Assembly (NCBI GenBank): GCA_964610465.1
Contig: CAZSWA010000002.1
Coordinates: 13,423-77,422 of the forward strand
DNA length: 64,000 nucleotides
DNA from: an uncultured Gammaproteobacteria bacterium
GTDB taxonomy: Bacteria; Patescibacteriota; Microgenomatia; Levybacterales; UBA12049
Direction: 5' to 3'
Part shown: positions 3,402 to 63,753 of the stretch, piece by piece
How positions within the stretch are numbered: the stretch's first letter is position 1
How the letters are laid out: every line of letters starts with the position of its first letter
The notes under the pieces: model-generated
Seen by the model: the letters and a program-made list of their open reading frames with translations, nothing else
Told to the model about the DNA's origin: nothing
Databases searched by the model: none
Translations under genes and position numbers: made by a program

Positions 3402-3429
3402 ATCTTTTAAGAAAGAAGTTTTTAATAAT

Positions 3430-4524: not shown

Positions 4525-4560
4525 ATCAAACCATGATTCCTTATTCATGATTCAAAAGCT

Positions 4561-7500: not shown

Positions 7501-7950
7501 GATATAAATAAAGTAAAATTCCTGGAAAGCGCAAGAAGATTACAAATACTTGGGCTCCCTATATATGCAACTGAAAAAACTGCCAAATATCTTAAAAAAA
7601 ATGGAATTCAAGTAAAACGCTTGTATAAATTGCATGAACAAAAAACTCCAAACATTTTACAGTACTTTCAGAAAGGCAAAGTTGACCTTGCAATTAATAT
7701 TACAGATAAAGATATAAAAAAAGAAGTGAATGATGACTATGCGATTCGTAGAACTGCAGTGGATTTAAATATCCCGCTTTTTACCAATCCGCAAAAAGCA
7801 GCACTTTTTATCAAAGCACTGTCTGAAAAAAATCTGCTACATCTTCCTATCAAGTCATGGGATCAATATCTCAATAATGAAAAAGCATCTAAAAAAATAA
7901 AAAAAGCTCCACAGATTGCAGAATTAATCACAACAAAAACCGATCTATAA
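4561..7950 (+). CDS. carB: Carbamoyl-phosphate synthase large subunit. It carries a ~28-aa GC-rich in-frame insertion in the oligomerisation region.
   Basis: Two ATP-grasp halves, an LGFSD oligomerisation motif and a C-terminal MGS-like domain across 1129 aa. The insertion at nt 6027-6110 is listed separately. Confidence 0.95.
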   Translation: MKQMKNEKKFQKVLVLGSGALKIGEAGEFDYSGSQAIKAMKEEGIQTVLVNPNIATIQTSKFLADSVYFLPVNEFFVTKVIEKEKPDGILLSFGGQTALNCGIQLYKKKILERNGIEILGTPMSAILLSEDRKKFANHLHKLNVSTPISKTAYKTREALEIAQGLGYPVMVRAGFALGGQGSGIAQNEEHLKQIADHAFSFVPQILVEKYLHHYKEVEYEVVRDKYDNCITVCNMENMDPLGIHTGESIVIAPSQTLTNFEYHTLRNISIKIVKSLGIVGECNVQFALNPRPQNDTSIEYYVIELNARLSRSSALASKATGYPLAYVAAKLALGKNLTQLQNKVTKATQFCFEPALDYVTVKIPRWDIEKFKGAEETIGSSMKSVGEVMGIGRTFEEAYQKALRMLDLNFEGAVNEKVFQKNGEKITHLLGRPTPKRMFAIAKALMEGVSVEEIYDITGIDPWFIYRIKNIVEEEKKLTMSSRKVLQSRTTRDPLHPSSMHEISPHTRRGRNDTITKSHLLHLKQLGFSDKRIGFLLGVSELEIRSLRKKYEVIPSIFQIDTLAGEFPAQTNYLYLTYNGAHNDVKPTNQQGVIVLGSGPYRIGSSVEFDWTSVNTVMSLKKHGKKSIIINCNPETVSTDYDISDRLYFEELTFERIADVYDFENPYGVIISVGGQTPNNRAMPLKKYGCNILGTDPYDIDRAEDRNKFSALLDTLGIKQPSWNKFNNIDEALKFAEKVGFPVLIRPSYVLSGSNMKICHNPAELMQYLEQVSTISQEYPITVSKFIRDAKEIEIDGVSEKGIVKAIVISEHIENAGVHSGDASILLPPQKLYIATLRKLRIIAADVAEALNITGPFNIQCLAKDNQVSVIEINLRASRTLPFISKVTGVNFIEMATDAFFHKNIKPLSINFLDYNYVAAKVAQFSFARLTGADPVLDVEMASTGEVACFGEDAEEAFLKAELSVGGHIPQKGVFVSLGGDINKVKFLESARRLQILGLPIYATEKTAKYLKKNGIQVKRLYKLHEQKTPNILQYFQKGKVDLAINITDKDIKKEVNDDYAIRRTAVDLNIPLFTNPQKAALFIKALSEKNLLHLPIKSWDQYLNNEKASKKIKKAPQIAELITTKTDL
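6027..6110 (+). repeat. GC-rich palindromic miniature element inserted in-frame in carB (family copy A)
   Basis: The ~50% GC patch lies in a ~33% GC gene and contains CCCC..GGGG and TCGAAATGACACAATAAC. It shares GA(G/A)(A/T)TTTCTCCC and a TCGA..ACAATAA tail with the pepP element. Confidence 0.45.
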
Positions 7951-7954
7951 ACGC

Positions 7955-9007
7955 ATGAGATTATTTACCTTACCAGGACTTATTGACCCACATGTGCATT
8001 TTCGCACTCCTGGCCAAACTCATAAAGAAGATTTTTTTACTGGAACCTCTGCCGCCCTTGCCGGAGGTTATACCACAGTAATTGACATGCCAAACAATCT
8101 TCAGCTAATCACTACAGAAGAGCGACTCAAAGAGAAAATTGCATTAGCAAAAGAGCAAGCCGTAGGTGATATAGGTTTTTACTTTGGATCGCTTGGGGAA
8201 AATTTTGCTGAGTTTCGCAAAGTGCAGAATAAAGTATTGGGACTTAAAATCTATCTTAATCAAACAACTGGCGGTTTTATTGTTGATGAAAATGTTTTCA
8301 GAAAAATCTGTGAAGCCTGGCCCAAACAACATCCAATTCTTGTCCATGCGGAAGCTGATGTTATTGCGCAAATTATCGAAATCGCTCATGAAACCAGGCA
8401 AAAACTACATATTGCACATGTAAGCTCAGAAGATGAACTGCAAACCATCATAACTGCGAAAGAAAAAGGACAGCTAGTTACCTGTGGAGTAACTCCGCAC
8501 CACTTATTTCTTACCTCAGATGATGAAAAATATCTGGGAAGTTTTGCCAAAATGAAACCAACTCTTAAATCAAAAAAAGATGTTGCATTTTTATGGAAAC
8601 ATCTTAAGTCAATTGACATAATTGAATCAGATCATGCTCCTCATACCAAAGAAGAAAAGCTATCAGAAATCTCGCCATTTGGTGTACCAGGACTTGAGAC
8701 AACGCTACCATTACTTTTGACCAGTATGCATCAGAGGAAAATTATGCTGGAAGGAATTATACAATTATGTTTTACAAATCCATCAAAAATATTTGGTATT
8801 AAACAAGATAAAGAAACAAAAATTGAAATAGATTCAACGCAAGAGTGGGAACTAAAAAATGAAAATCTTTTTACCAAATGCAAATGGTCACCTTTCAATG
8901 GCTGGAAAATGAAAGGAAAAGTCAAACGGGTATTCCTAAGAGGTACAAAAGTATTTGAAAATGATACAATGCTTGTTAAACCAGGATTTGGAAAGATAGT
9001 TTCTTAG
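7955..9007 (+). CDS. pyrC: Dihydroorotase
   Basis: N-terminal DPHVHFR metal-binding motif and the amidohydrolase fold. Consistent with its position in the pyr operon. Confidence 0.85.
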   Translation: MRLFTLPGLIDPHVHFRTPGQTHKEDFFTGTSAALAGGYTTVIDMPNNLQLITTEERLKEKIALAKEQAVGDIGFYFGSLGENFAEFRKVQNKVLGLKIYLNQTTGGFIVDENVFRKICEAWPKQHPILVHAEADVIAQIIEIAHETRQKLHIAHVSSEDELQTIITAKEKGQLVTCGVTPHHLFLTSDDEKYLGSFAKMKPTLKSKKDVAFLWKHLKSIDIIESDHAPHTKEEKLSEISPFGVPGLETTLPLLLTSMHQRKIMLEGIIQLCFTNPSKIFGIKQDKETKIEIDSTQEWELKNENLFTKCKWSPFNGWKMKGKVKRVFLRGTKVFENDTMLVKPGFGKIVS

Positions 9008-9027
9008 ATAATTATTTAATTATTGTC

Positions 9028-9048
9028 ATTCCCGACTTGATCGGGAAT
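9028..9048 (+). terminator. Short perfect hairpin ATTCCCGA-cttga-TCGGGAAT downstream of pyrC. It may be a terminator or a processing/regulatory stem.
   Basis: An 8-bp inverted repeat is seen directly with no clear T-run after it. It begins with TGTCATTC, like the GC-rich element upstream of prfA. Confidence 0.3.
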
Positions 9049-9192
9049 CTATACAACATGAATATTGCTCCTTTTTATAATCCAAATAAAACTTACGAAG
9101 AAAATTTTAATGAAGGTCCTTTTGGCGCGTTTGCAGATTAAAAAATCTATAAAGACAAAGGAGAACCAAAATATAAAGTCTTTGGAATCCCT

Positions 9193-10146
9193 GTGCATCT
9201 CCCATTTGGTATTCCTGCAGGTCCACTTCTCAATGGCAAATTTGTTAAAGCTGCACTGGATAAAGGATTTGATATTGTTGTCTACAAAACCGTTCGAACC
9301 CGCAAATATCCATGCGCTCCCTGGCCAAATGTACTTGCTATCAGGGTAAAAGACAAAATTACACTTGAAATGGCAGACAAAGGAGTGCTTGCTGATACAC
9401 AGTACCAAGAACCGCTTTCTATCACTAACTCTTTTGGAGTCCCGTCGTTTGAGCCGGACTTTTGGCAAAAAGATATGGCAGATACAGTAAAGTATGCCAA
9501 AGAAGGACAAATAATTGTAGGAAGTTTTCAGGGAACAACCACTCCCGATGGAAATATAAAAGAGTATATAAAAGATTTTGTGCTTGCTGCCAAACTCGTG
9601 AAAGAAACAGGAGCCAAAATTCTTGAAGCAAATCTCAGCTGTCCCAATGAAAGCACTTCTCATTTACTTTGTTTTGATATTGAGCGGACAAAAGAAATTG
9701 TAGAGGCGATTAAAAACGAAATTGGAAATACACCGCTCGTAATAAAAGTTGCTTATTTCCAAGATGTCGTAGCGTTTCGAAAACTCGTACAAGAAGTAGG
9801 GAATATCGTTGATGGAATCTCAACCATCAATACTATTCCTGCTAAGATTTACAAAGACAAAGAACATACAACGCAAGCATTACCTGGAAATAATCGTTTG
9901 GTAAGCGGCACATGCGGACATGCTATCAAATGGGCAGGACTTGAAAGTGTAAAAAGACTAAAACAACTTCATGAAGAGTTGAGAATGTCCTACACCATAT
10001 TTGGAGTCGGCGGAGTAACTGTTCCTGAAGATTATTTTGAATATAAAAAGGCAGGTGCCGATGTAGTAATGAGCGCAACTGGCGCTATGTGGAATCCACA
10101 TCTGGCAAAGGAAACGAAACAAAAAGCACTTAGTACTTATGACTAA
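9193..10146 (+). CDS. pyrD: Dihydroorotate dehydrogenase, class 1-like, with a probable GTG start
   Basis: FGIPAGPLLNG, ANLSCPN (active-site Cys) and FGVGGV motifs. The TAA stop overlaps the pyrF start (ATGACTAA). Confidence 0.85.
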   Translation: MHLPFGIPAGPLLNGKFVKAALDKGFDIVVYKTVRTRKYPCAPWPNVLAIRVKDKITLEMADKGVLADTQYQEPLSITNSFGVPSFEPDFWQKDMADTVKYAKEGQIIVGSFQGTTTPDGNIKEYIKDFVLAAKLVKETGAKILEANLSCPNESTSHLLCFDIERTKEIVEAIKNEIGNTPLVIKVAYFQDVVAFRKLVQEVGNIVDGISTINTIPAKIYKDKEHTTQALPGNNRLVSGTCGHAIKWAGLESVKRLKQLHEELRMSYTIFGVGGVTVPEDYFEYKKAGADVVMSATGAMWNPHLAKETKQKALSTYD

Positions 10147-11011
10147 ACACAAATCTGAATTTATTACTAAATTAGAAAACCGCTGGAGACAAAATACATT
10201 TGTTTGTGTAGGGCTTGATTCTGAATACAAACAAATTCCTCAATCGGTAAAAGATTCTTTTCCTCAAACCTTAAAAGAAGAAGTTATTTTTACCTTTAAT
10301 CAACAAATTATAGATGCAACAAATGACTTAGTATGTGCATACAAACCAAACGCCGCCTTTTATGAAGCGCAAGGCGATAATGGATATAGAGCACTGAGAA
10401 GAACGGTACAATATATTAAGAACAAATATTCTGATATTCCAGTGATATTAGATGCCAAACGCGCAGACATAGGAAATACCAATAATGAATATGTCCAATC
10501 AGCGTTTGATGAATTGGGAGTTGACGCAATTACTGTCAATCCATACTTAGGAAAGGAAGCACTGAAACCATTTTTAGATAGAAAAGAAAAAGGAATTATC
10601 GTGTTAGTAAAAACTTCAAACCCTGGTTCTGAAGAATTTCAGAATCTTCAGGTTTTAGTTGATGGAGAACAAAAGCCTCAATACCAAGTGGTTGCAAGAA
10701 ATGTTGCTGAGGATTGGAATATAAACGGCAATTGTAGCGTAGTAGTTGGCGCAACATATCCTCATGAACTTGCTCAAGTAAGAACACTAATTGGTGATAT
10801 GCCAATCCTTATTCCAGGTATTGGAGCACAAGGAGGAGAAATTGAAAATACCGTAAAAGCCGGAAAAGATAGTAGGGAATGGGGGATGATTATTAATTCA
10901 TCAAGAGGTATTATTTTTGCTTCAAAAGGAGCAGATTTTGCAGAAAAGGCAAGGCAAGAAACTGAAAAACTAAAAAATGAAATAAATAAACATAGGAGCA
11001 ACAAGAATTAG
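10139..11011 (+). CDS. pyrF: Orotidine 5'-phosphate decarboxylase (long/type 2 form)
   Basis: LDAKRADIGNT motif and ~290 aa length. The start overlaps the pyrD stop. Confidence 0.85.
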   Translation: MTKHKSEFITKLENRWRQNTFVCVGLDSEYKQIPQSVKDSFPQTLKEEVIFTFNQQIIDATNDLVCAYKPNAAFYEAQGDNGYRALRRTVQYIKNKYSDIPVILDAKRADIGNTNNEYVQSAFDELGVDAITVNPYLGKEALKPFLDRKEKGIIVLVKTSNPGSEEFQNLQVLVDGEQKPQYQVVARNVAEDWNINGNCSVVVGATYPHELAQVRTLIGDMPILIPGIGAQGGEIENTVKAGKDSREWGMIINSSRGIIFASKGADFAEKARQETEKLKNEINKHRSNKN

Positions 11012-11043
11012 TAAAGGTAACTCTTGATTCTTACTTCTAATAT

Positions 11044-11664
11044 ATGACTGAAGTTCTGGAAATATTGAAAAAATCGAATGCAATTATTACCAACAGTCAT
11101 GTTGTCCTGACTTCTGGCAAACATTCAGATAGTTATATCAACAAAGATGCGCTCTATCCTCATACACAATTTACATCACGAATTGGTGAACTATTTGCAG
11201 AAAAACATAAAGATTTGGATATTGATATCGTTGCAGCACCGGCACTGGGAGGCATAATTCTTTCTCAATGGACCGCATATCATTTATCGAAAATGAAAAA
11301 TAGGGAAGTGCTTGGAGTGTATACGGAAAAAGATACTGAGAAAAATCAGGTCTTTACCAGAAGATATGACAAATTAGTAAAGGGTAAAAATGTGCTCGTA
11401 ATTGAAGATTTAACGACCACAGGAGGTTCAGTACAAAAAGTCGTAACCAGTGTACAAAATGTCGGAGGGAATGTAATAGGAGTATCGGTTATGGTAAATC
11501 GCAATCCGGAAAATGTAAATTCAGAATTTATGGGAGTACCTTTTTCATCACTTGCTACTCTACAGGTTGAAGCATGGGAAGAAAAAGATTGTCAGCTCTG
11601 TAAACAGAATATCGCTATCAATACCAGTGTCGGACACGGTAAAAAATATCTTATGGAAAAATAG
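11044..11664 (+). CDS. pyrE: Orotate phosphoribosyltransferase
   Basis: PRPP-binding VLVIEDLTTTGGS motif and type I PRTase fold. Last gene of the pyr cluster. Confidence 0.8.
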   Translation: MTEVLEILKKSNAIITNSHVVLTSGKHSDSYINKDALYPHTQFTSRIGELFAEKHKDLDIDIVAAPALGGIILSQWTAYHLSKMKNREVLGVYTEKDTEKNQVFTRRYDKLVKGKNVLVIEDLTTTGGSVQKVVTSVQNVGGNVIGVSVMVNRNPENVNSEFMGVPFSSLATLQVEAWEEKDCQLCKQNIAINTSVGHGKKYLMEK

Positions 11665-36917: not shown

Positions 36918-39176
36918 TTATTGTTTAATAGTTTTCCCTACTTGATCTCGTAAGTTTTTTGTACAATGTTCACAAAATTCATGTTTATTAATAAGCCCTT
37001 CTCTGATTTTTTCAAGCAATTGTTGTTGCTCGAAGTCAGGAGTGTTTGTTCTAAATAATTTTTCTATCATATCTGAATCACTTACAAATTCTTCTACAGC
37101 ACTACGTAATTTTGGTAAAGCTTGTAAGAGAGACTCTGTTGATATATCCTTTCCCTGGCGATGTAAGCTTCCAGTAGCTCTTGCTGCTTCAGATCTTATA
37201 TCTTCACGTTGTTTATTTGATAATGGTACTCTTTCTCCATTACCAAGAACAGGATTGCTACAATCTTCAATTCTATTTAATTCAGATTCTGAGAGAATAT
37301 TTTTTATTTCATCATTATGCCTTTTTTCCAACGGATCTCTTTGCTCATATTCTTTTCTTTTTCCAGGTGATAACATTACTGTATCAATGTAACTATTAAA
37401 TATTCTGTCTCTCTTCTGCTCAAACGATTCTTCTTCAGTTCCAGCTCCTTCCATACGAATTATTTTAAGAAGCCATTTTCTATAATCTCCAATTTCATCA
37501 TCAATGATATGTAACCATGCTTGTTTATTGCTACTAATTGAACTTCGGGTATCTGCTTCTATTTCTTTTCGCAGGTCTACCAGCGCATCAAAAGGACTCA
37601 AGCATTTTGCGCCGTTTTCTTTTGCCTTTAATACGATATTGTAAAATTTATCTGTAATATATGCTTCAGACATGCCGATAGCACCTTCTCCATTCGCTTT
37701 TCCATCTTCTTCAATATCTTTTCTATTTTTTTGAGAGAAACCATCTTCTGATCTACCATCATAAATAGCAAGCTTGATTCTTGGTGTTAATTTTTTATCA
37801 ACAAGCTGTTTGTCTTTAGGTTGCGTAATCCTTGATAATATAGCAACATTCGCAATTCTTTCAGCTCTGATATGCATGGCATCCTTATCAAAAAAACCTC
37901 GTTCTCTTCTTCTTTTTCTATGCAATTCTTTTATATTACGGTAAAACGATATGTCTTTTTTCTCTAATGTCGTTTCTAATTCACTCACTACCTCTGATCG
38001 TGAAAGGCGGTAATGAATATCAACTTTTTCAAGACGTTCTTCAATTGCTTTTGCTATATCTCCTGAGGAATCTTTTTTGCCTTTTTCTTCAATTTCTCCA
38101 AGAAGAGTGTCGTACTCTTCATTCGTAGTTTCAGCAAATATCATAAAATCAAGATTTTCATATCGTAAACTATCTATATTCAAAGATCCGCTGCGAATAA
38201 AGTTAAGTATATCATTTCTAAATTTAGGATCATGCTTCATAAATTCAGCAATATGAAGGATTCCTCCATTCGCGCCTAATATTCTTTTAAATGCGTCCTT
38301 TCTCCCTTCTTCAGAATTAGTATCCTTTGGTTCAAGAGTTGCTACCCCACGTGACAACTGTGACGAGGAGAATGCCACTGGTTCTGTAAGAACTTCTGAT
38401 GGATTATAATGATGTTCTTTTAAAAGAGCTTCACAATGGGCACATAGCCCTCTTGTTACTCCATATGCTTTTCGTAATCCTTGTCTTTCTTGAACTGTTA
38501 TATTTTTCCCTGCGAGAAGAGCTTTTAATGCTGGTTCATTTATTTCACAACCTTTTATTATGTCAAAAGATTCTTTATCTCCAAAATGTTTTACTGTATA
38601 GTCAATTGTGCCTTGTTTAATAGCATCTAAAATAACCGACTTTCCTGATCCACTTGGACCTACAAGGAAAACCATTTTTGAAGATTGTGTTTCTCCTGCT
38701 TGTTTTCTCGCAATATTTTCTATCTGCTCTTTCACTTCTCCCATTCCATCTACTCTCTCAGTTGAATCTCTCATTGATGTATAGAACGTATTTTCCATAT
38801 GGCCTGAAGGAAGTGGATAATGTTCACCTTCCATTAATGCTCTATATACACGGTGGGCAGCATTTCTTGCAGGACGCTTTTCTTTTGTTGCGATTTTATT
38901 GACGAGCTCTTGAACAGTCAATTCTCTATCTACTATTTCTCTTTCTTGCTGTTCACGAGCTATACGTTCAAGAATAGGACGAGGGTCATAATATACCTCC
39001 TTTTCAGGTATTTTTCTGGATTTTCTTCTTGTTTCTCGTGTTATTGAGAGAACTTTAGGTGACGGTAAGATATCAACTTGTGAAGCTCTTCTCACTCTAC
39101 TAGAAGTTACTTCACGAGGAAACTGCCCATTAGAAACGGCATTTAGAGGTAAATCTTCACTTCTTTCAAGACTCAT
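36918..39176 (-). CDS. PrkA-family serine protein kinase-like AAA ATPase (YeaG/PrkA homologue) with an N-terminal extension
   Basis: Walker A LVGPSGSGKS, then DIIKGCEINEPAL (cf. B. subtilis PrkA AIKGCPMHEDPL), and LHIAEFMKHDPKFRNDILNFIRSG (cf. MEFQEMLKCDEKFLWHLLSLTQEG). Two CxHC pairs. Confidence 0.7.
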   Translation of the reverse strand: MSLERSEDLPLNAVSNGQFPREVTSSRVRRASQVDILPSPKVLSITRETRRKSRKIPEKEVYYDPRPILERIAREQQEREIVDRELTVQELVNKIATKEKRPARNAAHRVYRALMEGEHYPLPSGHMENTFYTSMRDSTERVDGMGEVKEQIENIARKQAGETQSSKMVFLVGPSGSGKSVILDAIKQGTIDYTVKHFGDKESFDIIKGCEINEPALKALLAGKNITVQERQGLRKAYGVTRGLCAHCEALLKEHHYNPSEVLTEPVAFSSSQLSRGVATLEPKDTNSEEGRKDAFKRILGANGGILHIAEFMKHDPKFRNDILNFIRSGSLNIDSLRYENLDFMIFAETTNEEYDTLLGEIEEKGKKDSSGDIAKAIEERLEKVDIHYRLSRSEVVSELETTLEKKDISFYRNIKELHRKRRRERGFFDKDAMHIRAERIANVAILSRITQPKDKQLVDKKLTPRIKLAIYDGRSEDGFSQKNRKDIEEDGKANGEGAIGMSEAYITDKFYNIVLKAKENGAKCLSPFDALVDLRKEIEADTRSSISSNKQAWLHIIDDEIGDYRKWLLKIIRMEGAGTEEESFEQKRDRIFNSYIDTVMLSPGKRKEYEQRDPLEKRHNDEIKNILSESELNRIEDCSNPVLGNGERVPLSNKQREDIRSEAARATGSLHRQGKDISTESLLQALPKLRSAVEEFVSDSDMIEKLFRTNTPDFEQQQLLEKIREGLINKHEFCEHCTKNLRDQVGKTIKQ

Positions 39177-45677: not shown

Positions 45678-46568
45678 ATGATTGCTGAATTGTACGAAGA
45701 CAAATTGAGAGATTTGGAATTCAAAGCAAACGAAGCGCGTCAGCTTTTGATTGAATCATTAGTTGCCGCAGGTTCCGGGCATACCGGCGGACCATTGGGA
45801 CTTACTGAGATATTTATTTCATTTTATTTTCATATCCTGCGTCACGATCCAAAAAATCCTGATTGGCCTGATAGAGATAGACTTATTCTCTCAAATGGTC
45901 ATACCTGCCCTATTCGTTATACCGTTATGGCAATGGCAGGATATTTCCCAACTGAAGAATTGAAAACCTTACGACACATGGGTTCACGACTTCAAGGACA
46001 TCCTCATCGGACTGCATTACAAGGAGTTGAGACGACATCCGGTCCACTTGGTGAAGGGTTATCACAAGGAATAGGTATTGCACTTGCCGGAAAACTTGAT
46101 AAAAAAGATTATCACGTCTATGTAGTTACCTCAGATGGCGAACATCAGGAAGGCAATACCTGGGAAGCAGCGATGTTTGCGGCAAAATATCGACTGAATA
46201 ATTTAACCTTGATTGTTGATAGAAATAATATTCAAATTGATGGGACAACAGAAGACGTGATGCCGCTTGAACCTTTTGCTGATAAATATAAAGCCTTTAA
46301 CTGGAATGTGCTTGAAATCGAAGGGAATAATATCCGGGCGATTGTCAATGCTGTCAAAGAAGCACGTGCAGTGACTGAAAAACCAACTGTCATTGTCGCT
46401 GATACAGTGCCAGGAAAAGGAGTAAGTTTTATGGAGTATGATTATCGTTGGCATGGCATGCCGCCTGATCTAAAAGATATGTCCGGCGCACCACCCAAAG
46501 GCGAACAAGCCAAAAAAGCACTGGAAGAACTGAAGATGATTGAACAAAGGTTAAAAGAAATATATTAA
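45678..46568 (+). CDS. Transketolase, N-terminal (TPP-binding) subunit
   Basis: SGHTGGPLGL and GDGE..EG motifs. Split-tkt arrangement. Confidence 0.9.
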   Translation: MIAELYEDKLRDLEFKANEARQLLIESLVAAGSGHTGGPLGLTEIFISFYFHILRHDPKNPDWPDRDRLILSNGHTCPIRYTVMAMAGYFPTEELKTLRHMGSRLQGHPHRTALQGVETTSGPLGEGLSQGIGIALAGKLDKKDYHVYVVTSDGEHQEGNTWEAAMFAAKYRLNNLTLIVDRNNIQIDGTTEDVMPLEPFADKYKAFNWNVLEIEGNNIRAIVNAVKEARAVTEKPTVIVADTVPGKGVSFMEYDYRWHGMPPDLKDMSGAPPKGEQAKKALEELKMIEQRLKEIY

Positions 46569-46600
46569 TAAGAAGATCATGCACTGACGATAGGTGAATT

Positions 46601-47596
46601 ATGCTCAATCCATATCTAAAATTAAATCTAAAATTGTTTGATGAAGACGTTACCCAAAAAGCAACGCGTGAAGGATTTGGTGATGGTCTTATGGCTCTTG
46701 GTGAATCCAATCCTAATATTGTGGTGTTAACTGCTGACTTAAGTGACTCTACTCAATGTGAGAAATTTGCGCAAAAATATCCTGAACGTTTTTTTGATTG
46801 CGGAGTTGCAGAACAAAACATGGCAGCTGTTGCGGCTGGTCTTGGCGCAACAGGTAAAATTGCATTTATCTCATCCTATGCTACCTTCTCCCCTGGAAAA
46901 AACTGGGAAACTATAAGAACTACTATTGTATATAATCAATCAAATGTAAAAATCGCTGGACATCATGCTGGTATTATGACAGGACCAGATGGTGCAACCC
47001 ATCAGGCAACTGAAGATATCGCTATAACTCGTTGCTGGCCTGATATCCAAGTATATATCCCCTGCGATAGCATTGAAGCCAAAAAAGCAACAATTGAATC
47101 TGCGAAAACTCCTCTACCTGTATATCTTCGTTATACCAGAGATAAAACTCCTGTCATGACAACTGAAGAAACTCCCTTTAGTGTTGGGAAAATTCAAGCT
47201 TTTTGGGTATCTAATACTCCTCAAGTAACTATCTTTGCCACAGGATACATGTTGTATTATGCGATGGTTGCTGCCAAAGAACTGGAAAATGAAGGTATTC
47301 AAACATTTGTTGCCAATGTCACAACCATTAAGCCGCTTGACGGAGAAAACATCATCAAACTTACTGAACAAACAAAAGCAGTAGTGACAGTTGAAGATCA
47401 TCAAGTTACAGGAGGACTCGGTAGCGCAGTTGCTGAATTTTTGGCAAAGAACAATCCCCTGCCCATGGAATTTATCGGTTTGCAGGATACGTTTGGAGAA
47501 ACAGGAACACCCAAAGAACTGATTGAAAAATATCATATGGGAATAAGTGCAATTAAAGATGCTGTCAAGAAAGTGCTTGTAAGAAAAGCAAAATAG
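46601..47596 (+). CDS. Transketolase, C-terminal (pyrimidine-binding) subunit
   Basis: Transket_pyr and transketolase_C domains. Adjacent to the N-terminal subunit. Confidence 0.9.
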   Translation: MLNPYLKLNLKLFDEDVTQKATREGFGDGLMALGESNPNIVVLTADLSDSTQCEKFAQKYPERFFDCGVAEQNMAAVAAGLGATGKIAFISSYATFSPGKNWETIRTTIVYNQSNVKIAGHHAGIMTGPDGATHQATEDIAITRCWPDIQVYIPCDSIEAKKATIESAKTPLPVYLRYTRDKTPVMTTEETPFSVGKIQAFWVSNTPQVTIFATGYMLYYAMVAAKELENEGIQTFVANVTTIKPLDGENIIKLTEQTKAVVTVEDHQVTGGLGSAVAEFLAKNNPLPMEFIGLQDTFGETGTPKELIEKYHMGISAIKDAVKKVLVRKAK

Positions 47597-49361: not shown

Positions 49362-51296
49362 TTAAGCACTAATGAAAACTTTCTGCAAACCCAATGTGTC
49401 GAAATCTTTTTCAGGAAGATTTGCAAATACTTTGTAAAAATAGAAGAAATTTTTACTAATGATATCAATTGCTTCATGAAGTGTAATCTTGCCATTGTAA
49501 TGGGAAACAATGGCATCCCAGAAAATAGTCCTTCCGACGGCAAATCCGACAACACCTGGAACTTTTGCTCCTTCCTGTATCCATCTGGTAACTTTTTCTT
49601 TATTTGCACCTCGTCCTAGGACTACCATACTGACATTATTTCTGTTATCACTTCGTATCTGCCGCATAATTTTTTTGTAATCCTTTTCCGTTTCTAATCC
49701 TTCAAGTTTCCAGATATCAGGTTCTATTCGTGCATCTTGAAGCTCTTTTATAAGTTTTGCTACTAGTTTTGGACGAAGGATACTATCATACATGTCTATA
49801 TCGTTTTTCACTTTTGTAAGTTGCCTTTGAGATGGAGGTACGACAACTTCGAGGAGAAATTTATAGCCTCTTTGATGACAGAAATTACTTAGTTCCCTCA
49901 AACCTTTTTGCTGTGCTTTTTTCTGTTTTACGTCATCATCAGGATTGTATTTGATAAGTGCCTTTGCAAAAGTCGGATGATATAGTTCTATATGCGCTTT
50001 AAAATCTTCACCATACTCAAAAGTAAATGCCTTCTGTCCCGTTTTTTCAGTAGTAAGAATGGTTGAAAAATTATTTTTATTGGCATTTCGCAAAATTGCA
50101 TATCCGTATTCTTCATCTACCAATATTGCTGCATCTTCTTTGGGTATACCCATTGCAACTGCATCCCGAAAGGCTTCATAAATAATTTGTTTGAAATCCC
50201 GTATCAAAGCTCTCTGCTCAAGAGTCATATGTTCAACTTCAGTTTTAAATAAATGTTCAGCAAAGGTATTCCTATGGTCAAAAGCCAAAATATATAATGG
50301 ATTTCTATATCCTAGAGAATATTCTGTTGAATCAATCCGCTCACGCATTTTTTCTTTGGTGAGAAGCCCTGCTTCAGACCCTACTTTTTCAATTACAGAT
50401 GCTGCATTTAATGCTCCCCAGCGCATCGCTTCTGTGATTGACTGTCCGTGAAGTAATGCTGCAAGAAATCCTGAAGTATATGCATCTCCAGCTCCTGTTT
50501 TTTCAATAACTTTAGCAGGAACAAGCCCAAAGATATGTGTCTTTCCATGTTCATCAATCGTATATGATCCATGTGCTCCATCTGTCATAACGACAATTCT
50601 TGGACCAAGTTTTTGTAATTTTATAAGAAGTTCTTCTTTATATTTTTCATCATCATTTTTAGTCTCACTGCCAAAAAGGAGTTGCTCTCCTTCTTCTTTA
50701 TTGAGAAAAAGAACATACGTTTTGGCAAGGAGCTTTTTTACTACATCTTTTCCTTCTCGAAGTTGAATGCTACCGGGATTAAATGCAATTTGAACATTGT
50801 GAGTAACTGCATATTCAAGCGCTTTTTTGTAAGGTGTCTCCCATTCCTGTCCGAGACTGGTTAAGAAAAGCATTTTTGCATGAACCCCTTCATAATTGAA
50901 CTCGTGTTCACGATGAATATGCTCACTAAACAGCGTTCTGTCTCCTTTGAAATTGATAGCAATAGAAAACGAAGAGGGAGCGTGTCGTGAATGTTTGACA
51001 AAACTTCTTGTCATATTTTCATGAGCTAACATATTTACAATTTTGAGAGAGAATTCATCATTTCCAATTTCTGAGAAGAGTGCAGTTTTTATACCCAAAC
51101 GTGAAAGACCGACGGCAACATTGGTAGCATTCCCCCCAAGACAAAATTCACTATGCTCAACCTCTATTTTTTCACCATGCTTGACACAAAGGTCACGGCT
51201 AGCTGCGTCTACTCTGCATTTGTTGTTGGAATCATGGATTGAAAGGAAGATATCAAGCTTCGTATCACCTACACTGATGACATCATATTCGTACAT
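49362..51296 (-). CDS. PfkB-family sugar kinase fused to a C-terminal LacD/DUF2090-like aldolase-type domain (cf. bifunctional IolC/IolJ-type 5-dehydro-2-deoxygluconokinase/aldolase)
   Basis: N-terminal ~310 aa carry the PfkB signature (..GAGDAYTSGFLAALLHG). The C-terminal ~330 aa (..ILAFDHR..LLEVVV..) is judged aldolase-like by resemblance only. Confidence 0.55.
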   Translation of the reverse strand: MYEYDVISVGDTKLDIFLSIHDSNNKCRVDAASRDLCVKHGEKIEVEHSEFCLGGNATNVAVGLSRLGIKTALFSEIGNDEFSLKIVNMLAHENMTRSFVKHSRHAPSSFSIAINFKGDRTLFSEHIHREHEFNYEGVHAKMLFLTSLGQEWETPYKKALEYAVTHNVQIAFNPGSIQLREGKDVVKKLLAKTYVLFLNKEEGEQLLFGSETKNDDEKYKEELLIKLQKLGPRIVVMTDGAHGSYTIDEHGKTHIFGLVPAKVIEKTGAGDAYTSGFLAALLHGQSITEAMRWGALNAASVIEKVGSEAGLLTKEKMRERIDSTEYSLGYRNPLYILAFDHRNTFAEHLFKTEVEHMTLEQRALIRDFKQIIYEAFRDAVAMGIPKEDAAILVDEEYGYAILRNANKNNFSTILTTEKTGQKAFTFEYGEDFKAHIELYHPTFAKALIKYNPDDDVKQKKAQQKGLRELSNFCHQRGYKFLLEVVVPPSQRQLTKVKNDIDMYDSILRPKLVAKLIKELQDARIEPDIWKLEGLETEKDYKKIMRQIRSDNRNNVSMVVLGRGANKEKVTRWIQEGAKVPGVVGFAVGRTIFWDAIVSHYNGKITLHEAIDIISKNFFYFYKVFANLPEKDFDTLGLQKVFISA

Positions 51297-58559: not shown

Positions 58560-58838
58560 TTACTTCGTCCTCAAAAGCAAATGCCGTAATACTTTTTCAT
58601 TTCTATGTAATTTTTGTTCAACATCAGATGGGATAACCTTTTCTGTTTCCAATTTCATAAGGTGATAAAATCCGGCAAGCTCTTTTTTAATAGAGTACGC
58701 AAGCGGTTTTTGTCCCCACTCTTCTTCTTTGGTAATTTTTATATCTTTAAGCGATTCTTTGACACTTGTCAAAAGCTTTTTTCGCTCAATTTCAGACAGT
58801 GAAGGCTTAAGAACCAAAACTAAATCATATAAACGCAT
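58560..58838 (-). CDS. rpsF: Ribosomal protein S6
   Basis: MRLYDLVLVL N-terminus. Conserved rpsF-ssb-rpsR order. Confidence 0.9.
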   Translation of the reverse strand: MRLYDLVLVLKPSLSEIERKKLLTSVKESLKDIKITKEEEWGQKPLAYSIKKELAGFYHLMKLETEKVIPSDVEQKLHRNEKVLRHLLLRTK

Positions 58839-58914
58839 AGTAGTATCGTATAATTGTACTCAAATCTGCCTCAAAAAGCAAGAGATATATTATTTTTAAG
58901 CTGTGAACAAAAAA

Positions 58915-59355
58915 AATGTAAGCCTTTTTCCCACGAAAAAACCCCTGGAACTTCAAATGCGCTTATACAAGCATTGCGGTGACGCCATTGTCACCGCCGT
59001 GTACAAATCGCATCCCTGCGAAATTCCAAGGGAGCACGCCATTGTGCCCCCAATAATCATGATGGGGTTAATCCCACCAGTTCCTTCGATAGTCTTTCGA
59101 TGGACCCGTAGGTCCTGTATGAAGAATCCACGGCATTCTGTCTCGCCAATCTGGCTGCCTCCATGCATGTTTTATGCAGAAAAAGAATCCTTTCGCTACT
59201 AGACTAACTGCCATGAAGACTACAGGTACAACTGCCCCTTGCATGCCGCGTTCCTTTCGTTTCTGGCGGGACGGTTCGCAGCACCTTACTGCAAATCCAT
59301 CTTTGCCAGACCAAGTCTCGATTGAAGCGGGATTTGGTCTGGCAAGCCAGAAAAG
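58915..59355. ncRNA. GC-rich (~50%) ~440-nt island with no coherent ORF and many nested inverted repeats. Candidate structured RNA gene; class unresolved, strand unknown.
   Basis: Four overlapping 60-100 aa ORFs in different frames. Stems GCCAGACCAA..TTGGTCTGGC, GCCGTG..CACGGC and others. Shares TTCCT(T/C)CGATAGT(C/T)TTTC with the 53141-53230 element. Confidence 0.35.
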
Positions 59356-59450
59356 GTTTATATTGGGGTACACATGTAAAAGTGCTTATCTAAACAATAC
59401 CAGAAAACACAGCAAAAGTCAATATTATAGGTCTTTATTTTAACCTTAGA

Positions 59451-61397
59451 CTACGGTTTTTCTTTGTAGGTTTTTATAAATGATATTGCACTCTTACTCT
59501 CTAAACCTGCTTTTTTTGTTGCTTCCTCAAGTGGCATAAGCATTCTCTCAAGAATTTCAGGATGTTTTATCAAGGATATTTTTTTGTACGACTCTCGCGC
59601 TTTGGTAATATGATAATGTATGATGTCACACACTTCATTGATAATGTTATACCAAAATATTTCCTGAAGTTTGGGTAATGCAATATCAATTGCACCTGTT
59701 TTATTTTTTGTCTTTGATGCTCTGTATTGTGTGAGAATAAGTGCATTTACAGGATTTATATGTCCTTTTTTCAAGTCACTTTCCCAATCATGTGCATCAT
59801 CATTGAGTTGCCGTGCTATCAAGTAATGTCTAAAAAACGAAAGTAAGTTTTGAATTTCTGAAGAATCTTTTGTATAACCTAACGCAAAAAGTATTGCCAA
59901 AGGTCCCAATGCATGACCTATGGATTTATCAACAAGTATCGTGTAATTACTAAAGTCAGGTAACGGGTATTTCAAGATATCATCTTTCTCTTTTATTCTG
60001 CAATGGATAATTTCCCAACTATTGGCTGCATCTATCGTATCCATGCTGGTTTGAAAAAGCGTAAGAAACTCATTGTTTTTAGGAAGAATCGTGATGAAAA
60101 TTCTTGTCACCTCACGAAGTGAAATATTTGCAATTGATAATGTTCTTATGTCTCCTTCTTCATCCAAAAAATTATCATATATAGTATAGGCAAGCCAGCC
60201 AAATACGTTGGCACATCCTAGTTCAATAAGAAATACTTCATGTATTTTTTTTCCTTTATCTCCCAGACTCTGATTAAAATAATATGGCAAAAGAGGAATT
60301 TGTTTTCCTTTCTCTCCTTCCAATATATCTTTGAGCTGCAGTTTCATTTCTTCTTTTATACTTATATCAAATGGCTTAAATGTCTCTTCAACCTTTGTAA
60401 TAACTTTTTTATAGATTTTAATCTGTTGTTGAGACATATTTTCCTGTTTCCTGTTTTTCTTCTGGAGCGTTGTATATTTGTAGAGTGCTTCAAGACAAAA
60501 CGCAGTAGTCATTGCGTATGATCCAGAATAATACGGCACTCCATCTTTACTTGGGTCCAAATAAAATGGACAAGCATCCCAACTCCCATCCTTTTTTTGT
60601 TTTTTTAAAAGATATGAGAGGCAGTCTTCCAAACCTTCCAGCGGAACATCAAGATTGATAAGTGCCAACAGTGCAAGTGCAGTATATAAAGGATTTTCCC
60701 ACATGTTGTTTTTATCTTTTTCTTTTAAGAGCATCGTCTTTAATTTCTCTCTATATCTCCCTTTATAAAGTCTGGAAATGAAATAAATAATTGGATAAAA
60801 AGACGGATAATAGGGAGATTTGATATTCCCACTTTTAATTTTAGATTCTATAAACGTTACAAGATTTGGTAACTCTATTGCAAAAAGAGAAAGAAAGTAC
60901 GCGATATTGCTATTGACTGCCAAATCAACATCCTGCCATTTTCCGTCATCCTTATTAACCAGCCAAGTGCGGTATGGTCCTCCTTCTTTTTCTTCAACTG
61001 AAGTTAATACCATTACAATTTTTGCGAGGACCTCTCCATCAATTATCTTGTTATCAATATGTAATAATGCAGCGACTGCACAAAATGTATCATCTAAATC
61101 ATCAGGATATCGCATATCTAACGATTCTTTTGATCCTCTTGCCCAATAATTAAAAGACCAGTGTTTGCTTTTTTGTTTTAATAAGAATTTTGCAGCTCTA
61201 GATTTTATTGTATCTGCAGGTATGTCTTTTAAGGCAAGAAGGATAAGAGATGTCGTAAAAGTCGTATGATACGTAAGAGCACTTTTAAAATTGAAAGGGT
61301 CAGGTGATGAAAGACTAAGAAAACCTCCGTCTTTTTGTTGTTGTGATAAGATATAGCTTATTCCTCTTTCAAGTACTTTCTTGAAATCAGACACCAT
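59451..61397 (-). CDS. Large protein with an N-terminal class II terpene-cyclase-like (squalene-hopene-cyclase-type alpha/alpha toroid) domain and a C-terminal helical domain bearing acidic motifs
   Basis: QW-type repeats QQKDGGF and QKKDGSWD. DxDDT motif in PDDLDDTFCAVAAL. C-terminal YDNFLDEEGD and LNDDAHDWESD, similar to the DDxxD and NSE/DTE motifs of class I terpene synthases. Confidence 0.45.
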   Translation of the reverse strand: MVSDFKKVLERGISYILSQQQKDGGFLSLSSPDPFNFKSALTYHTTFTTSLILLALKDIPADTIKSRAAKFLLKQKSKHWSFNYWARGSKESLDMRYPDDLDDTFCAVAALLHIDNKIIDGEVLAKIVMVLTSVEEKEGGPYRTWLVNKDDGKWQDVDLAVNSNIAYFLSLFAIELPNLVTFIESKIKSGNIKSPYYPSFYPIIYFISRLYKGRYREKLKTMLLKEKDKNNMWENPLYTALALLALINLDVPLEGLEDCLSYLLKKQKKDGSWDACPFYLDPSKDGVPYYSGSYAMTTAFCLEALYKYTTLQKKNRKQENMSQQQIKIYKKVITKVEETFKPFDISIKEEMKLQLKDILEGEKGKQIPLLPYYFNQSLGDKGKKIHEVFLIELGCANVFGWLAYTIYDNFLDEEGDIRTLSIANISLREVTRIFITILPKNNEFLTLFQTSMDTIDAANSWEIIHCRIKEKDDILKYPLPDFSNYTILVDKSIGHALGPLAILFALGYTKDSSEIQNLLSFFRHYLIARQLNDDAHDWESDLKKGHINPVNALILTQYRASKTKNKTGAIDIALPKLQEIFWYNIINEVCDIIHYHITKARESYKKISLIKHPEILERMLMPLEEATKKAGLESKSAISFIKTYKEKP

Positions 61398-61434: not shown

Positions 61435-62847
61435 CTACTTCCCTTTTCTCAAAGGAATGAGTATGGTAAAAAGCGTTCCGTTTTCTTTTCCTGTTTCTAC
61501 ATTGATTGTTCCGTTAAATTCCTTATCAATAATATATTTACAAATAGAAAGACCAATACCTGTATTACTGTCAAAACTTTTTGTCGTAAAGAATGGCTCA
61601 AAAATTTTATCAAGATATTTTTTTTCAATACCTTCACCATAATCCTGAACCGTTAATTGTATTGTATATTTCAGTTTTTGTGCAGTAATTTCAATTTTCT
61701 TTTCTTTTTTCCTTTTCAAATGTTCGTATGAATCAATAGCGTTTGAGATAAGATTCGTGATAACTTGATTAAACTTTAATTGATTTCCATAGAGTGTAAT
61801 AGAAGACGTTTTGTCGAGATGTATCTGGATATTTTCTTCTTTTGCTTTATAATGAAACATATCAATCACATCCTGAATTTCATCTGTTACTGAAAATCGC
61901 TTTCTTAGTTCGTGACTTTGCATTTGTTTCCTTGCAGTTTTCACAAAGTCCTCAAGCTTTTTAAGTCCTATTGTTGCACGATGCAGTAACACTTTTCTTT
62001 CATCCAATTGATTTCCTGATATTTCTTCAGCTTGCGAAGACAGTTGATTTAAATTAAGAGAGACTAAGTTGAGGGGATTTGCCAAATCATGAAAAAGTCC
62101 TGATGCAAGTCGACCAAACTCTACAAAACGGTAGAGTTGTGCAATCTTTTCCGCTTGCAATTGTTTTAATTCTTGAGTACGTTTTTCAACGGTAACTTCG
62201 AGTAAATCTCTTTGTTTTTTGAGCGCTGCTTCCGAAACTCTGGCTCTTTTCAATGCTTTCTCACCTTCAATATTGAAGAGCCAGGAAATAAGGGCAATAA
62301 TAAGCAATGTAATATATCTCACTATTGTGTCTGCCAAATTATATGCTTGCTTTTTCCAATATAAATCGGGTCTGTATATATGATTGATTTGCAAATATGA
62401 GATTGTAATAAAGGTAACTCCTGTAAGAGCTGTAGCGGTGAATATCGATTTTGTATCAATCAATATTCCTGACATAACAATAATAAGCGCATACAGGAGA
62501 AGAACCTGAGGTACGTCTGCTCCCCATCGTGCAGAAGTATAGAAAGTAGTCAAAAATAAAAAGGCGATAAAAATTGTTGCGGCTATTTTTGATTTTTTAA
62601 GTCTGGATAATATTAGGAGGATACAAAAAAATGAAAAAAATGCAAAGGTAAACACTGGTAGTAACCCATGATAAGGTGTTGAAGTAAAATAGAAAAACAA
62701 ATTTTGTCCGAAAGCGACAAATGTCAAAATAATGATGGAAACCAGCAAAATATTAAGGATAAATTCTCGACGGGCAGTATCTTTATCTTTTGAACGGGGC
62801 AGAATAATATAATGTAATAAAAAAGTAGACGTTGTTTTAAAGAACAT
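61435..62847 (-). CDS. Sensor histidine kinase with a multi-TM N-terminal sensor domain
   Basis: H-box LFHDLANPL, N-box NLISNAIDS and G-boxes DYGEGI and GIGLSI. Confidence 0.85.
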   Translation of the reverse strand: MFFKTTSTFLLHYIILPRSKDKDTARREFILNILLVSIIILTFVAFGQNLFFYFTSTPYHGLLPVFTFAFFSFFCILLILSRLKKSKIAATIFIAFLFLTTFYTSARWGADVPQVLLLYALIIVMSGILIDTKSIFTATALTGVTFITISYLQINHIYRPDLYWKKQAYNLADTIVRYITLLIIALISWLFNIEGEKALKRARVSEAALKKQRDLLEVTVEKRTQELKQLQAEKIAQLYRFVEFGRLASGLFHDLANPLNLVSLNLNQLSSQAEEISGNQLDERKVLLHRATIGLKKLEDFVKTARKQMQSHELRKRFSVTDEIQDVIDMFHYKAKEENIQIHLDKTSSITLYGNQLKFNQVITNLISNAIDSYEHLKRKKEKKIEITAQKLKYTIQLTVQDYGEGIEKKYLDKIFEPFFTTKSFDSNTGIGLSICKYIIDKEFNGTINVETGKENGTLFTILIPLRKGK

Positions 62848-63081: not shown

Positions 63082-63753
63082 CTATCTAGTCGCTAGCTTA
63101 TATCCAAATCCATGAGCTGTCTTTATAAGTTTTTTATGAAATGGCTTATCTATTTTTTCCCGCAGATTTCTGATATGCACATCTATAAAATTAGTTGCAG
63201 CTTCTACGTCACTGTCCCATACATGATCTAAAATCATTTCACGGGTGACTACCTGTCCTTTGTTCCTCATGAGATATTCAAGTATATAAAGTTCTTTTTT
63301 CCGAATAGGAATTACCTTGTTATTTCTTTTGACAACTTTTGTACTTAAATCAAGTGTCAAATCACCAACTGATAAGATATTTGAAGGCAAAGTAGATAGT
63401 GAACGACGGCTAAGTGCATTGATTCGCGCAATAAGTTCTTCCATTGCAAAAGGTTTGATAAGATAATCATCAGCACCTGAATCAAGCGCTTGTACTTTTC
63501 TTCGTATTTCCGATTGTCCAGTCAGCATAAGAATAGGAGTTGATAGTCCTTCCTTCCGAATTTTTCGGCATATATCAATCCCATTGGCATCAGAAAGAAT
63601 CATATCTATGACAATGACATCATATATTTCATTTTGCATTTTCTTCTCGCTTTCTTTTGCACTTAATGCAATATCAACTAGAAAATGTTTAGAAAGTCCA
63701 TCTCGTATAGTAAATGCGGTAACTTTATCATCTTCTATAACAAGTAGTTTCAT
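63082..63753 (-). CDS. OmpR-family response regulator
   Basis: Receiver domain with DMILSD phospho-acceptor context, and a winged-helix trans_reg_C domain. Confidence 0.9.
   Translation of the reverse strand: MKLLVIEDDKVTAFTIRDGLSKHFLVDIALSAKESEKKMQNEIYDVIVIDMILSDANGIDICRKIRKEGLSTPILMLTGQSEIRRKVQALDSGADDYLIKPFAMEELIARINALSRRSLSTLPSNILSVGDLTLDLSTKVVKRNNKVIPIRKKELYILEYLMRNKGQVVTREMILDHVWDSDVEAATNFIDVHIRNLREKIDKPFHKKLIKTAHGFGYKLATR

Follow-up and report, generated by a model that had tools for sequence, protein, structure and literature searches.

In a 64,000-nucleotide stretch of the bacterial contig CAZSWA010000002.1 (hereafter the window), a complete gene on the minus strand at positions 59451..61397 encodes a 648-amino acid (aa) protein. 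On balance, this is probably a two-site terpenoid synthase built on a beta-alpha plan, which joins a catalytic beta domain of the class II terpene cyclase type to an alpha domain with the fold of trans-isoprenyl diphosphate synthases (IPPS); both chemistries are familiar. The domain folds, the conservation of sequence motifs, and the synteny are direct results of the analysis, whereas catalysis at both sites, the lack of chain elongation, and a role in the membrane are inferred. The unfamiliar parts of this two-domain family are its architecture, its lineage restriction, and its regulatory coupling. [quoted passage not shown]

The open reading frame (ORF) starts with ATG, and its span includes the stop codon. 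An AlphaFold2 model of the full-length protein, built with 30 homologs, has a mean predicted local distance difference test score (pLDDT) of 89.2 and shows a short linker between a helical-hairpin domain (residues 1-317) and a second domain that is all-helical (residues 323-645). This layout agrees with the split into ~330 and ~300 residues proposed in an earlier interpretation of the DNA (the sequence-only reading). The ORF and all motif strings quoted there were each found at their place in the protein: QQKDGGF at residues 20-26, DLDDT at 100-104, QKKDGSW(D) at 267-274, FLDEEGD at 410-416, and NDDAHDWESD at 532-541. We counted conservation across 83 homologs that share 36-51% identity with the 648-aa protein, and found the motifs conserved beyond chance: P98, D100, D102 and T104 are present in 82 of the 83 homologs and D103 in 81, while D408, D412, D533, D537 and D541 are present in all of them.

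The N-terminal domain (residues 1-317; 60447..61397, minus strand, as are all features of the gene given below) is very likely a class II terpene cyclase domain. Searched against the PDB, the family profile matches the Aquimarina spongiae drimenol synthase AsDMS (9mhs/9m7d) with an E-value of 1.8e-12 over profile positions 25-310, and the alignment sets PYPDDLDDT over FPDDLDTT and SPYYP over RYYPA of AsDMS. Foldseek also places AsDMS first (E 1e-11, root-mean-square deviation (rmsd) ~3 Å), followed by 8pak/8paj (3e-10) and MstE (3e-7), then SsDMS, squalene-hopene cyclase (SHC) and oxidosqualene cyclase; the first 33 PDB matches are class II cyclases without exception. In AsDMS, D331, D333 and Y427 are catalytic, Y426 is essential by mutagenesis, and Y427 hydrogen-bonds the catalytic Asp (PMC12365925). 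By alignment with AsDMS and by conservation, P98-D-D100-L-D102-D103-T104 (61086..61106) is the general-acid motif of the DxDD(T) type, in which D102 is predicted to donate the proton, and the profile alignment together with the AsDMS mutagenesis identifies Y196-Y197 (60807..60812) as the counterpart of AsDMS Y426/Y427. The pattern DxDD[TA] occurs in 81/83 homologs, Y197 in all 83, and Y196 in 77. The profile match, the fold matches, and the near-invariant motif and tyrosine all support the class II cyclase and acid motif that the sequence-only reading had assigned to this half.

The same reading had seen QW repeats of the squalene-hopene-cyclase type in the N-terminal half, and these are present. 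A motif scan identifies a QW-like repeat, QQKDGGF (residues 20-26; 61320..61340), in which W is replaced by F, and the second repeat, QKKDGSW (residues 267-273; 60579..60599), is a canonical QxxxGxW that HMMER aligns to several SHC QW repeats; the pattern QxxxGx[WF] is found in 78/83 family members. The likeness does not extend to SHC's domain organization. Monodomain cyclases of ~340 aa are covered over their whole length with target-normalised TM-scores of 0.64-0.70, whereas SHC is covered by about half with a target-normalised TM-score of 0.35, and the domain is therefore a lone AsDMS/MstE-like beta domain, not a beta-gamma pair. In Pfam and TIGRFAM scans of the 648-aa protein, SQHop_cyclase_C stayed below its cut-off (19.2 vs 26.1 bits), as did TIGR01787 (31 vs 322.7), and neither Pfam nor NCBIfam gave a match to a HAD domain. 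With the single protein sequence, toroid families remained below threshold in Pfam, NCBIfam and PDB searches, bar a partial match to TED_complement, and the C-terminal half drew no match; family profiles were needed.

The diphosphate-binding arginines of AsDMS are not retained. Four AsDMS arginines that bind the diphosphate of farnesyl diphosphate (FPP), R378, R380, R425 and R513, correspond to W154 (83/83), D156 (82/83), P195 (71/83), and A/K/S283. Because these arginines are replaced, the substrate of the beta domain may differ from that of any characterised relative. Their replacement, together with a family-specific insertion, G139-G-P-Y-R-T-W145 (60963..60983), which falls in a 6-residue gap in AsDMS and whose GGPY and W145 are invariant in 83/83 homologs, indicates that the substrate head group is recognised otherwise than in AsDMS. 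By analogy with what has been reported for SsDMS, the invariant acidic pair D156/D158 could bind Mg2+-diphosphate.

The C-terminal domain (residues 323-648; 59454..60431) is an all-helical alpha domain with the trans-IPPS fold, as judged by AlphaFold2 and Foldseek. Modeled alone, it reaches a pLDDT of 91 and a predicted TM-score of 0.89, and its top 50 PDB matches in Foldseek are all trans-IPPS, with no class I terpene cyclase and no squalene/phytoene synthase among them. The best match is a hexaprenyl diphosphate synthase (3aqb_B; TM-score 0.72/0.74, rmsd 3.6 Å, E 1e-4), followed by solanesyl-, octaprenyl-, decaprenyl-, geranylgeranyl (GGPP) and FPP synthases and the all-alpha prenyltransferase Ord1. 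The first Asp-rich (FARM-like) motif is D408-N409-F-L-D412 (60162..60176; family consensus DDFLD), which a mafft-profile alignment places onto IPPS D88-D89-x-x-D92; position 409 is D in 71/83 homologs and N in 9/83. The acidic string FLDEEGD, singled out in the sequence-only reading, overlaps this motif, D408-(D/N)409-F-L-D412, and is not identical to it. The second Asp-rich (SARM-like) motif together with the region-VI Asp is D533-D534-A-H536-D537-W-E-S-D541 (59775..59801), aligned to IPPS FQxxDD...D by both hhalign and mafft-profile. Q530, R428, N459, E462 and S492 are also invariant in 83/83 homologs, and this invariance, with that of the Asp motifs, argues that the domain is catalytic and not a scaffold.

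By sequence, the C-domain stands apart. None of 30 family members reaches the threshold of the IPPS family PF00348 in Pfam, and no sequence relatives of the domain were detectable in Pfam, NCBIfam or the PDB, including a search of the PDB with the family profile. As a reference we aligned 16 genuine IPPS encoded by genes adjoining homologs (two checked, PF00348 E ~1e-54). In hhalign, the C-domain family does not match these IPPS significantly (probability 1.5%, E 0.034), but the stretch that is paired consists of just the second Asp-rich motif plus region VI. The mafft-profile alignment, which is heuristic, also pairs the first Asp motif with that of IPPS. In it, of the IPPS basic residues, K49 is variable, R52 is replaced by Q366, RRG after motif 1 is deleted, K240 is replaced by H536, and K250 by H/Q/R546; for the lysine of the KT motif, only K/R at position 491 may correspond. 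Overall, the C-domain is an IPPS fold with intact metal sites that lies outside the IPPS family by sequence. Since the basic residues that bind isopentenyl diphosphate (IPP) are lost and PF00348 is not matched, sequence comparison indicates that the domain probably does not bind IPP; fold, motif retention and basic-residue loss together suggest that it probably ionises or transfers a prenyl diphosphate without elongating it. IPPS-fold enzymes that use acceptors other than IPP exist, namely Ord1 and ComQ (PMC12510300).

The gene lies at the end of a conserved operon. A histidine kinase gene 37 bp upstream (61435..62847, minus strand) encodes a 470-aa protein with 5 predicted transmembrane (TM) helices, no large extracytoplasmic loop, and a Pfam HATPase_c match at 3.9e-22. 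An OmpR-type response regulator gene of 223 aa (63082..63753, minus strand; Response_reg and Trans_reg_C) lies 234 bp further upstream, and all three genes share the minus strand. ORF calling and clustering covered 83 loci at which the gene is complete. At 79/83 of these, a member of the kinase cluster immediately precedes the gene on its own strand, with a median gap of 0 bp; at the other four, the contig extends less than 2 kb beyond the gene on the upstream side. Regulators of a single cluster are found at 68/83 loci, at 57 of them upstream on the same strand. Kinases at the homolog loci have 4-7 predicted TM helices (mode 5-6) and a median longest loop of 27 aa, and their sensor region matches no Pfam family; with this many TM helices and only short loops, we consider them intramembrane-type sensors.

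Canonical trans-IPPS genes also occur near the operon, within 10 kb of the gene in 17/83 loci (PF00348 E ~1e-54 in the two checked). Eleven follow the gene immediately on its own strand, with practically no gap (an operon with an adjacent IPPS is that of L074, OZ246417.1, at around 617-620 kb), and three lie upstream on the same strand, between regulator and kinase where inspected (locus L005); 14 of the 17 are thus inside or abutting the operon. Five positions ahead of the first motif (position -5), these operon-adjacent IPPS carry a small residue where short-chain FPP synthases have an aromatic one, which by established chain-length rules would be compatible with products of C20 or longer. 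No other neighbor cluster occurs in more than 7 of the 83 loci; the minor neighbors (at most 7 loci) include an ABC ATPase, M24 peptidase, cupin, RadC, MsrA and GT2 glycosyltransferase, and none of these minor clusters looked isoprenoid-related by eye. At L005 alone (positions 3,080-8,329 of that locus), Caroten_synth (PF04240) and HD-domain genes lie 2-4 kb further upstream, possibly as additional isoprenoid-related genes near the operon.

The family is large and appears restricted to CPR. We identified more than 857 full-length relatives with 44-51% identity to the 648-aa protein, and those with organism names are all Patescibacteria/CPR and all labelled hypothetical. An exhaustive search of representative sequences with a C-domain profile retrieved 1,630 representatives (50% clustering), of which 1,160 score E<1e-30. 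Among the best 150 of these 1,630, almost every protein is ~650 aa long, and none of these 150 bridges to a named family, all being members of the same two-domain family or shorter proteins. We considered whether matches of ~280-400 aa that hold the C-domain only are split genes; the one checked (P0121) lies at the edge of a 1.3-kb contig and is a fragment. A pattern scan with one genome per species found the family in 201 genomes. Among the best 80 of these 201, from which we describe its span, carriers belong to Microgenomates (Levyibacteriota, Daviesbacteria, Shapirobacteria), Parcubacteria (Moraniibacteriota, Doudnabacteria, Colwellbacteria, Paceibacterota), Saccharimonadia and CPR2. Seventeen homolog records (L008, L013, L017, L019, L021, L022, L024, L026, L028, L036, L038, L041, L047, L050, L062, L064 and L067; GC content 30-54%) are titled Gammaproteobacteria, Methylomirabilota, Sulfotelmatobacter, Vitreimonas or Bacillota. 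The same kinase-regulator neighborhood is present in 16 of these 17, the exception being the contig-truncated L026, and the 17 are probably mislabelled metagenome-assembled genomes.

A supply of precursors for the enzyme is plausible, because the majority of Microgenomates reportedly have the mevalonate pathway, and in them IPPS genes are syntenic with mevalonate genes (PMC6107057). With IPPS genes near 17/83 homolog loci as well, the earlier remark that isoprenoid cyclases are unexpected in a reduced genome was overstated.

We propose the following route for the two-site enzyme. A linear prenyl diphosphate would be made by a separate canonical IPPS, a step supported by synteny. In the beta domain, D102 of D100-L-D102-D103-T104, polarised by Y197, would protonate the terminal C=C of the (poly)prenyl chain and so start a cationic ring-closing cascade; this part of the mechanism is drawn from near-invariant homology to the experimentally defined catalytic residues of AsDMS. 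In the C-domain, the Asp clusters (D408/D412; D533/D534/D537 and D541) would bind Mg2+ and the allylic prenyl diphosphate end, and the domain would ionise or remove the diphosphate, by class I-type chemistry or by transfer to a non-IPP acceptor, with no elongation. As for the order of the two steps, the missing arginine cluster of the beta domain, as judged from alignment, would favor diphosphate removal first, while the precedent of tandem class II-to-class I enzymes and the acidic D156/D158 pair favor cyclisation first.

The gene comes last in a conserved operon of regulator, kinase and enzyme, and because the kinase is of the intramembrane-sensing type, the product is probably a cyclic terpenoid that associates with the membrane and whose synthesis responds to the state of the envelope. 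That the coupling to such a kinase is conserved suggests that the product may act in the membrane. Patescibacteria are largely unable to build their own fatty-acid lipids. A fuller proposal, which we regard as speculative and rather unlikely as a whole, is that these bacteria use the regulator-kinase-enzyme module as a membrane-homeostasis circuit, in which the kinase registers the physical condition of the envelope and turns on the compact two-domain synthase, which would make a polycyclic hopanoid- or sterol-like lipid from a polyprenyl diphosphate.

Several observations weigh against the two-site terpenoid synthase model. The link between the C-domain and IPPS is one of fold only (E ~1e-4, 12-15% identity), and sequence-profile homology is not significant. 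The argument from residue loss leans on an alignment that is heuristic and, at region IV (KT vs K/R-S-x-G-H), ambiguous. In the copy of the source genome, Asn409 takes the place where the first motif should have its second Asp, and the family has not conserved any of the four AsDMS arginines that grip the FPP diphosphate. The connection between kinase and membrane function is an inference from topology alone, the sensor region having no Pfam match. Among the carriers of the family are Parcubacteria lineages, a group in which mevalonate genes are reportedly rare (PMC6107057). Finally, the 64-kb window contains no isoprenoid gene over the approximately 2.4-64 kb covered, in agreement with the sequence-only reading, which saw no isoprenoid pathway there. 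The sole near-miss is a split transketolase at 45,678-47,596, whose N- and C-terminal halves are separate genes; its N half also matches DXP_synthase_N and could be mistaken for the 1-deoxy-D-xylulose 5-phosphate synthase of the methylerythritol phosphate pathway.

The alternative that survives best is a fusion of the type of the fungal enzyme PvCPS, in which the C-domain would elongate dimethylallyl diphosphate with IPP to FPP, GGPP or longer, and the N-domain would cyclise the product to a cyclic prenyl diphosphate. In its favor, each of the C-domain's 50 best structural neighbors is a chain-elongating IPPS, neither Asp-rich motif is lost, and 66/83 loci have no separate IPPS within 10 kb; fungi are reported to have enzymes in which a class II cyclase is combined with a prenyltransferase that forms GGPP (PMC12393454). 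We nevertheless consider this alternative improbable. All 30 members tested leave PF00348 unmatched, hhalign gives a probability of 1.5% against genuine IPPS, and the heuristic alignment shows none of the basic residues that IPP binding requires (GKxxR, RRG and GK/K). Moreover, a canonical IPPS abuts or lies inside the operon at 14 loci from several lineages, where an elongating C-domain would be redundant.

Slightly less probable again is the tandem class II and class I cyclase put forward in the sequence-only reading, in which a C-domain with DDxxD and NSE/DTE motifs would ionise and further cyclise the class II product. Part of this idea stands: the alpha fold and two metal-binding acidic clusters, one of the DDxxD type, are present. 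Its mechanism overlaps with that of the two-site model we favor, and class II-to-class I precedents exist in abietadiene synthase and bifunctional diterpene synthases. However, the NSE/DTE pattern [ND]Dxx[ST]xxxE is absent from the 648-aa protein and occurs in 2/83 homologs, the second motif being of the IPPS type (QxxDDxxD). The nearest folds are trans-IPPS, with no class I cyclase in the top 50, and the Pfam terpene synthase models are matched by 1/30 members, through a weak Terpene_syn_C_2 match (E 0.007).

That the protein is instead non-terpenoid, a non-catalytic accessory of the two-component system with a generic toroid binding module (A2M/TED-, LanC- or glycosidase-like) as its N-domain, is highly improbable: TED_complement exceeds its gathering cut-off (28.2 vs 22 bits) with weak matches in 20/30 members, Foldseek finds an alpha-amylase-like toroid (3ren, E 5e-4), and strict kinase coupling is typical of accessory proteins, but the TED match spans ~90 of 312 profile positions (109-199), class II cyclases lead other toroids by 6-7 orders of magnitude in Foldseek E-value, near-invariant AsDMS catalytic residues and Asp clusters are hard to explain without catalysis, and genuine IPPS genes lie in the operon. 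The other toroid identities that the sequence-only reading had left open for the N-domain fail in the same way, with no such fold near the top of the Foldseek matches. We rejected an A2M thioester domain (PF07678), since the thioester motif CGEQ is absent from the 648-aa protein (and present in 1/83 homologs) and no Cys but C106 is conserved, and a LanC-like cyclase, since the zinc-ligand motifs CHG and WCxG occur in 0/83 homologs and Pfam gives no LANC_like match.

TED_complement is precomputed on many homologs and is a likely source of wrong automatic annotation. The resulting A2M thioester annotation, the sole Pfam match above threshold, is misleading and should not be propagated. A further precomputed family, PF28380.1, is found on ~10% of the listed homologs (for example P0008, P0012 and P0044); our local Pfam scan did not report PF28380 in three carriers. 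Its patchy coverage suggests that it was not built on the two-domain family.

A terpenoid synthase with two active sites would have several implications. Domain-based mining would miss this family because the IPPS Pfam model is unmatched in the members tested and SHC-type models are sub-threshold in the 648-aa protein. Our analysis supplies a testable biochemical role for one of the larger conserved hypothetical families of CPR (1,630 clusters at 50% identity), and suggests that minimal, host-dependent CPR cells make a regulated cyclic terpenoid or lipid. The near-obligatory coupling to a two-component system offers a rare handle on what CPR organisms sense. On the speculative membrane-homeostasis reading, the protein would also be a living case of a catalytic beta domain joined to an alpha domain that is still IPPS-like, a type of intermediate that has been put forward to explain how alpha-beta(-gamma) terpene synthases arose from modules.

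Elsewhere in the window, between the stop of the gene (59451) and rpsF (58560-58838), the minus strand holds a non-coding stretch of ~500 bp (58,900-59,400) with a GC content of 41-53%, compared with 28-38% in its flanks. It contains no called gene, no Rfam match at E<=1, and no tRNA or tmRNA. Its minus-strand folding has a minimum free energy of -206.5 kcal/mol vs -158 +/- 5.9 kcal/mol for shuffled sequences (z = -8.2), and a promoter-like site with TG (59422-59394) and a terminator-like hairpin (59079-59060), both on the minus strand, would bracket a transcript of ~330 nucleotides. Among 87 loci, the stretch is found only on the source genome's own contig; it is a candidate unannotated structured RNA. 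The window also carries, at 2,430-11,664, an apparently complete gene set for de novo pyrimidine synthesis, notable for a supposedly reduced CPR genome: aspartate carbamoyltransferase, the small and large chains of carbamoyl-phosphate synthase, an amidohydrolase, dihydroorotate dehydrogenase, orotidine monophosphate decarboxylase, and a phosphoribosyltransferase. Two further proteins are unusual for a small genome, a 644-aa PfkB-DUF2090-DeoC fusion (49,362-51,296) and a 752-aa PrkA-type AAA protein kinase (36,918-39,176).

Among known systems, AsDMS and the other HAD-TCbeta enzymes (AstC etc.; 9mhs, 9m7d) are nearest to the N-domain by both sequence profile and fold. Each has just one catalytic beta domain and no gamma domain, with the acid motif at the same position, the same Tyr partner, and nearly the same Asp-Tyr spacing (94 residues for D333/Y427 in AsDMS, 95 for D102/Y197 here), and in both the beta domain is fused to a second domain that handles diphosphate. 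In AsDMS this partner is an N-terminal HAD phosphatase, whereas in the two-domain family it is the C-terminal IPPS-like alpha domain. For relatives, it has been suggested that the HAD domain or a mobile loop covers the active site of the beta domain (PMC12324236). The AsDMS motif is DxDTT and that of the two-domain family the canonical DxDDT, and the latter family differs further in its four replaced arginines, its GGPYxTW insertion, and an identity of only ~22%. MstE (6sbb) and the myxobacterial 'SHC' 8pak/8paj resemble the N-domain as beta-only class II cyclases of ~340 aa that align over their whole length. PDB entries of MstE include the mutants D109N and Y157F, which point to an Asp/Tyr pair, and the enzyme recognises the head group of its substrate in the absence of the Arg/diphosphate pattern seen in AsDMS. 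These enzymes stand alone, whereas the two-domain family is always alpha-fused, and identity is 11-19%.

The C-domain shares with trans-IPPS (PF00348; 3aqb, OPPS, SPS) Asp-rich motifs on equivalent helices with IPPS-like spacing, as well as conserved QxxDDxxD and the subsequent D-x-x-x-G. Unlike trans-IPPS, it lacks GKxxR, RRG and the Lys residues, has an 11-residue deletion after the second motif, and has invariants of its own: W401, Y404, R428, N459, W461, E462, H495, H536 and W538. In Ord1 and ComQ, the Asp-rich motifs of an IPPS fold ionise a prenyl diphosphate for a non-IPP acceptor, and Ord1 is a fold match to the C-domain at E 5.5e-4; neither is fused to a cyclase, unlike the two-domain family, and the likeness is one of fold. 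In the Bacillus sesquarterpene pathway, a diphosphate-ionising enzyme and a class II cyclase (YtpB and SqhC) turn a long-chain prenyl diphosphate into a polycyclic membrane lipid. YtpB and SqhC are two separate proteins of different families and offer an analogy only. In PvCPS, the cyclase is a beta-gamma pair that lies N-terminal to the prenyltransferase. Like the two-domain family, PvCPS combines a class II cyclase and an IPPS-fold domain in one polypeptide, and its prenyltransferase is reported to make GGPP (PMC12393454). PvCPS is fungal, whereas the two-domain family is bacterial, apparently CPR-restricted and beta only, with an IPPS-like domain that fails PF00348 and lacks the IPP-binding residues.

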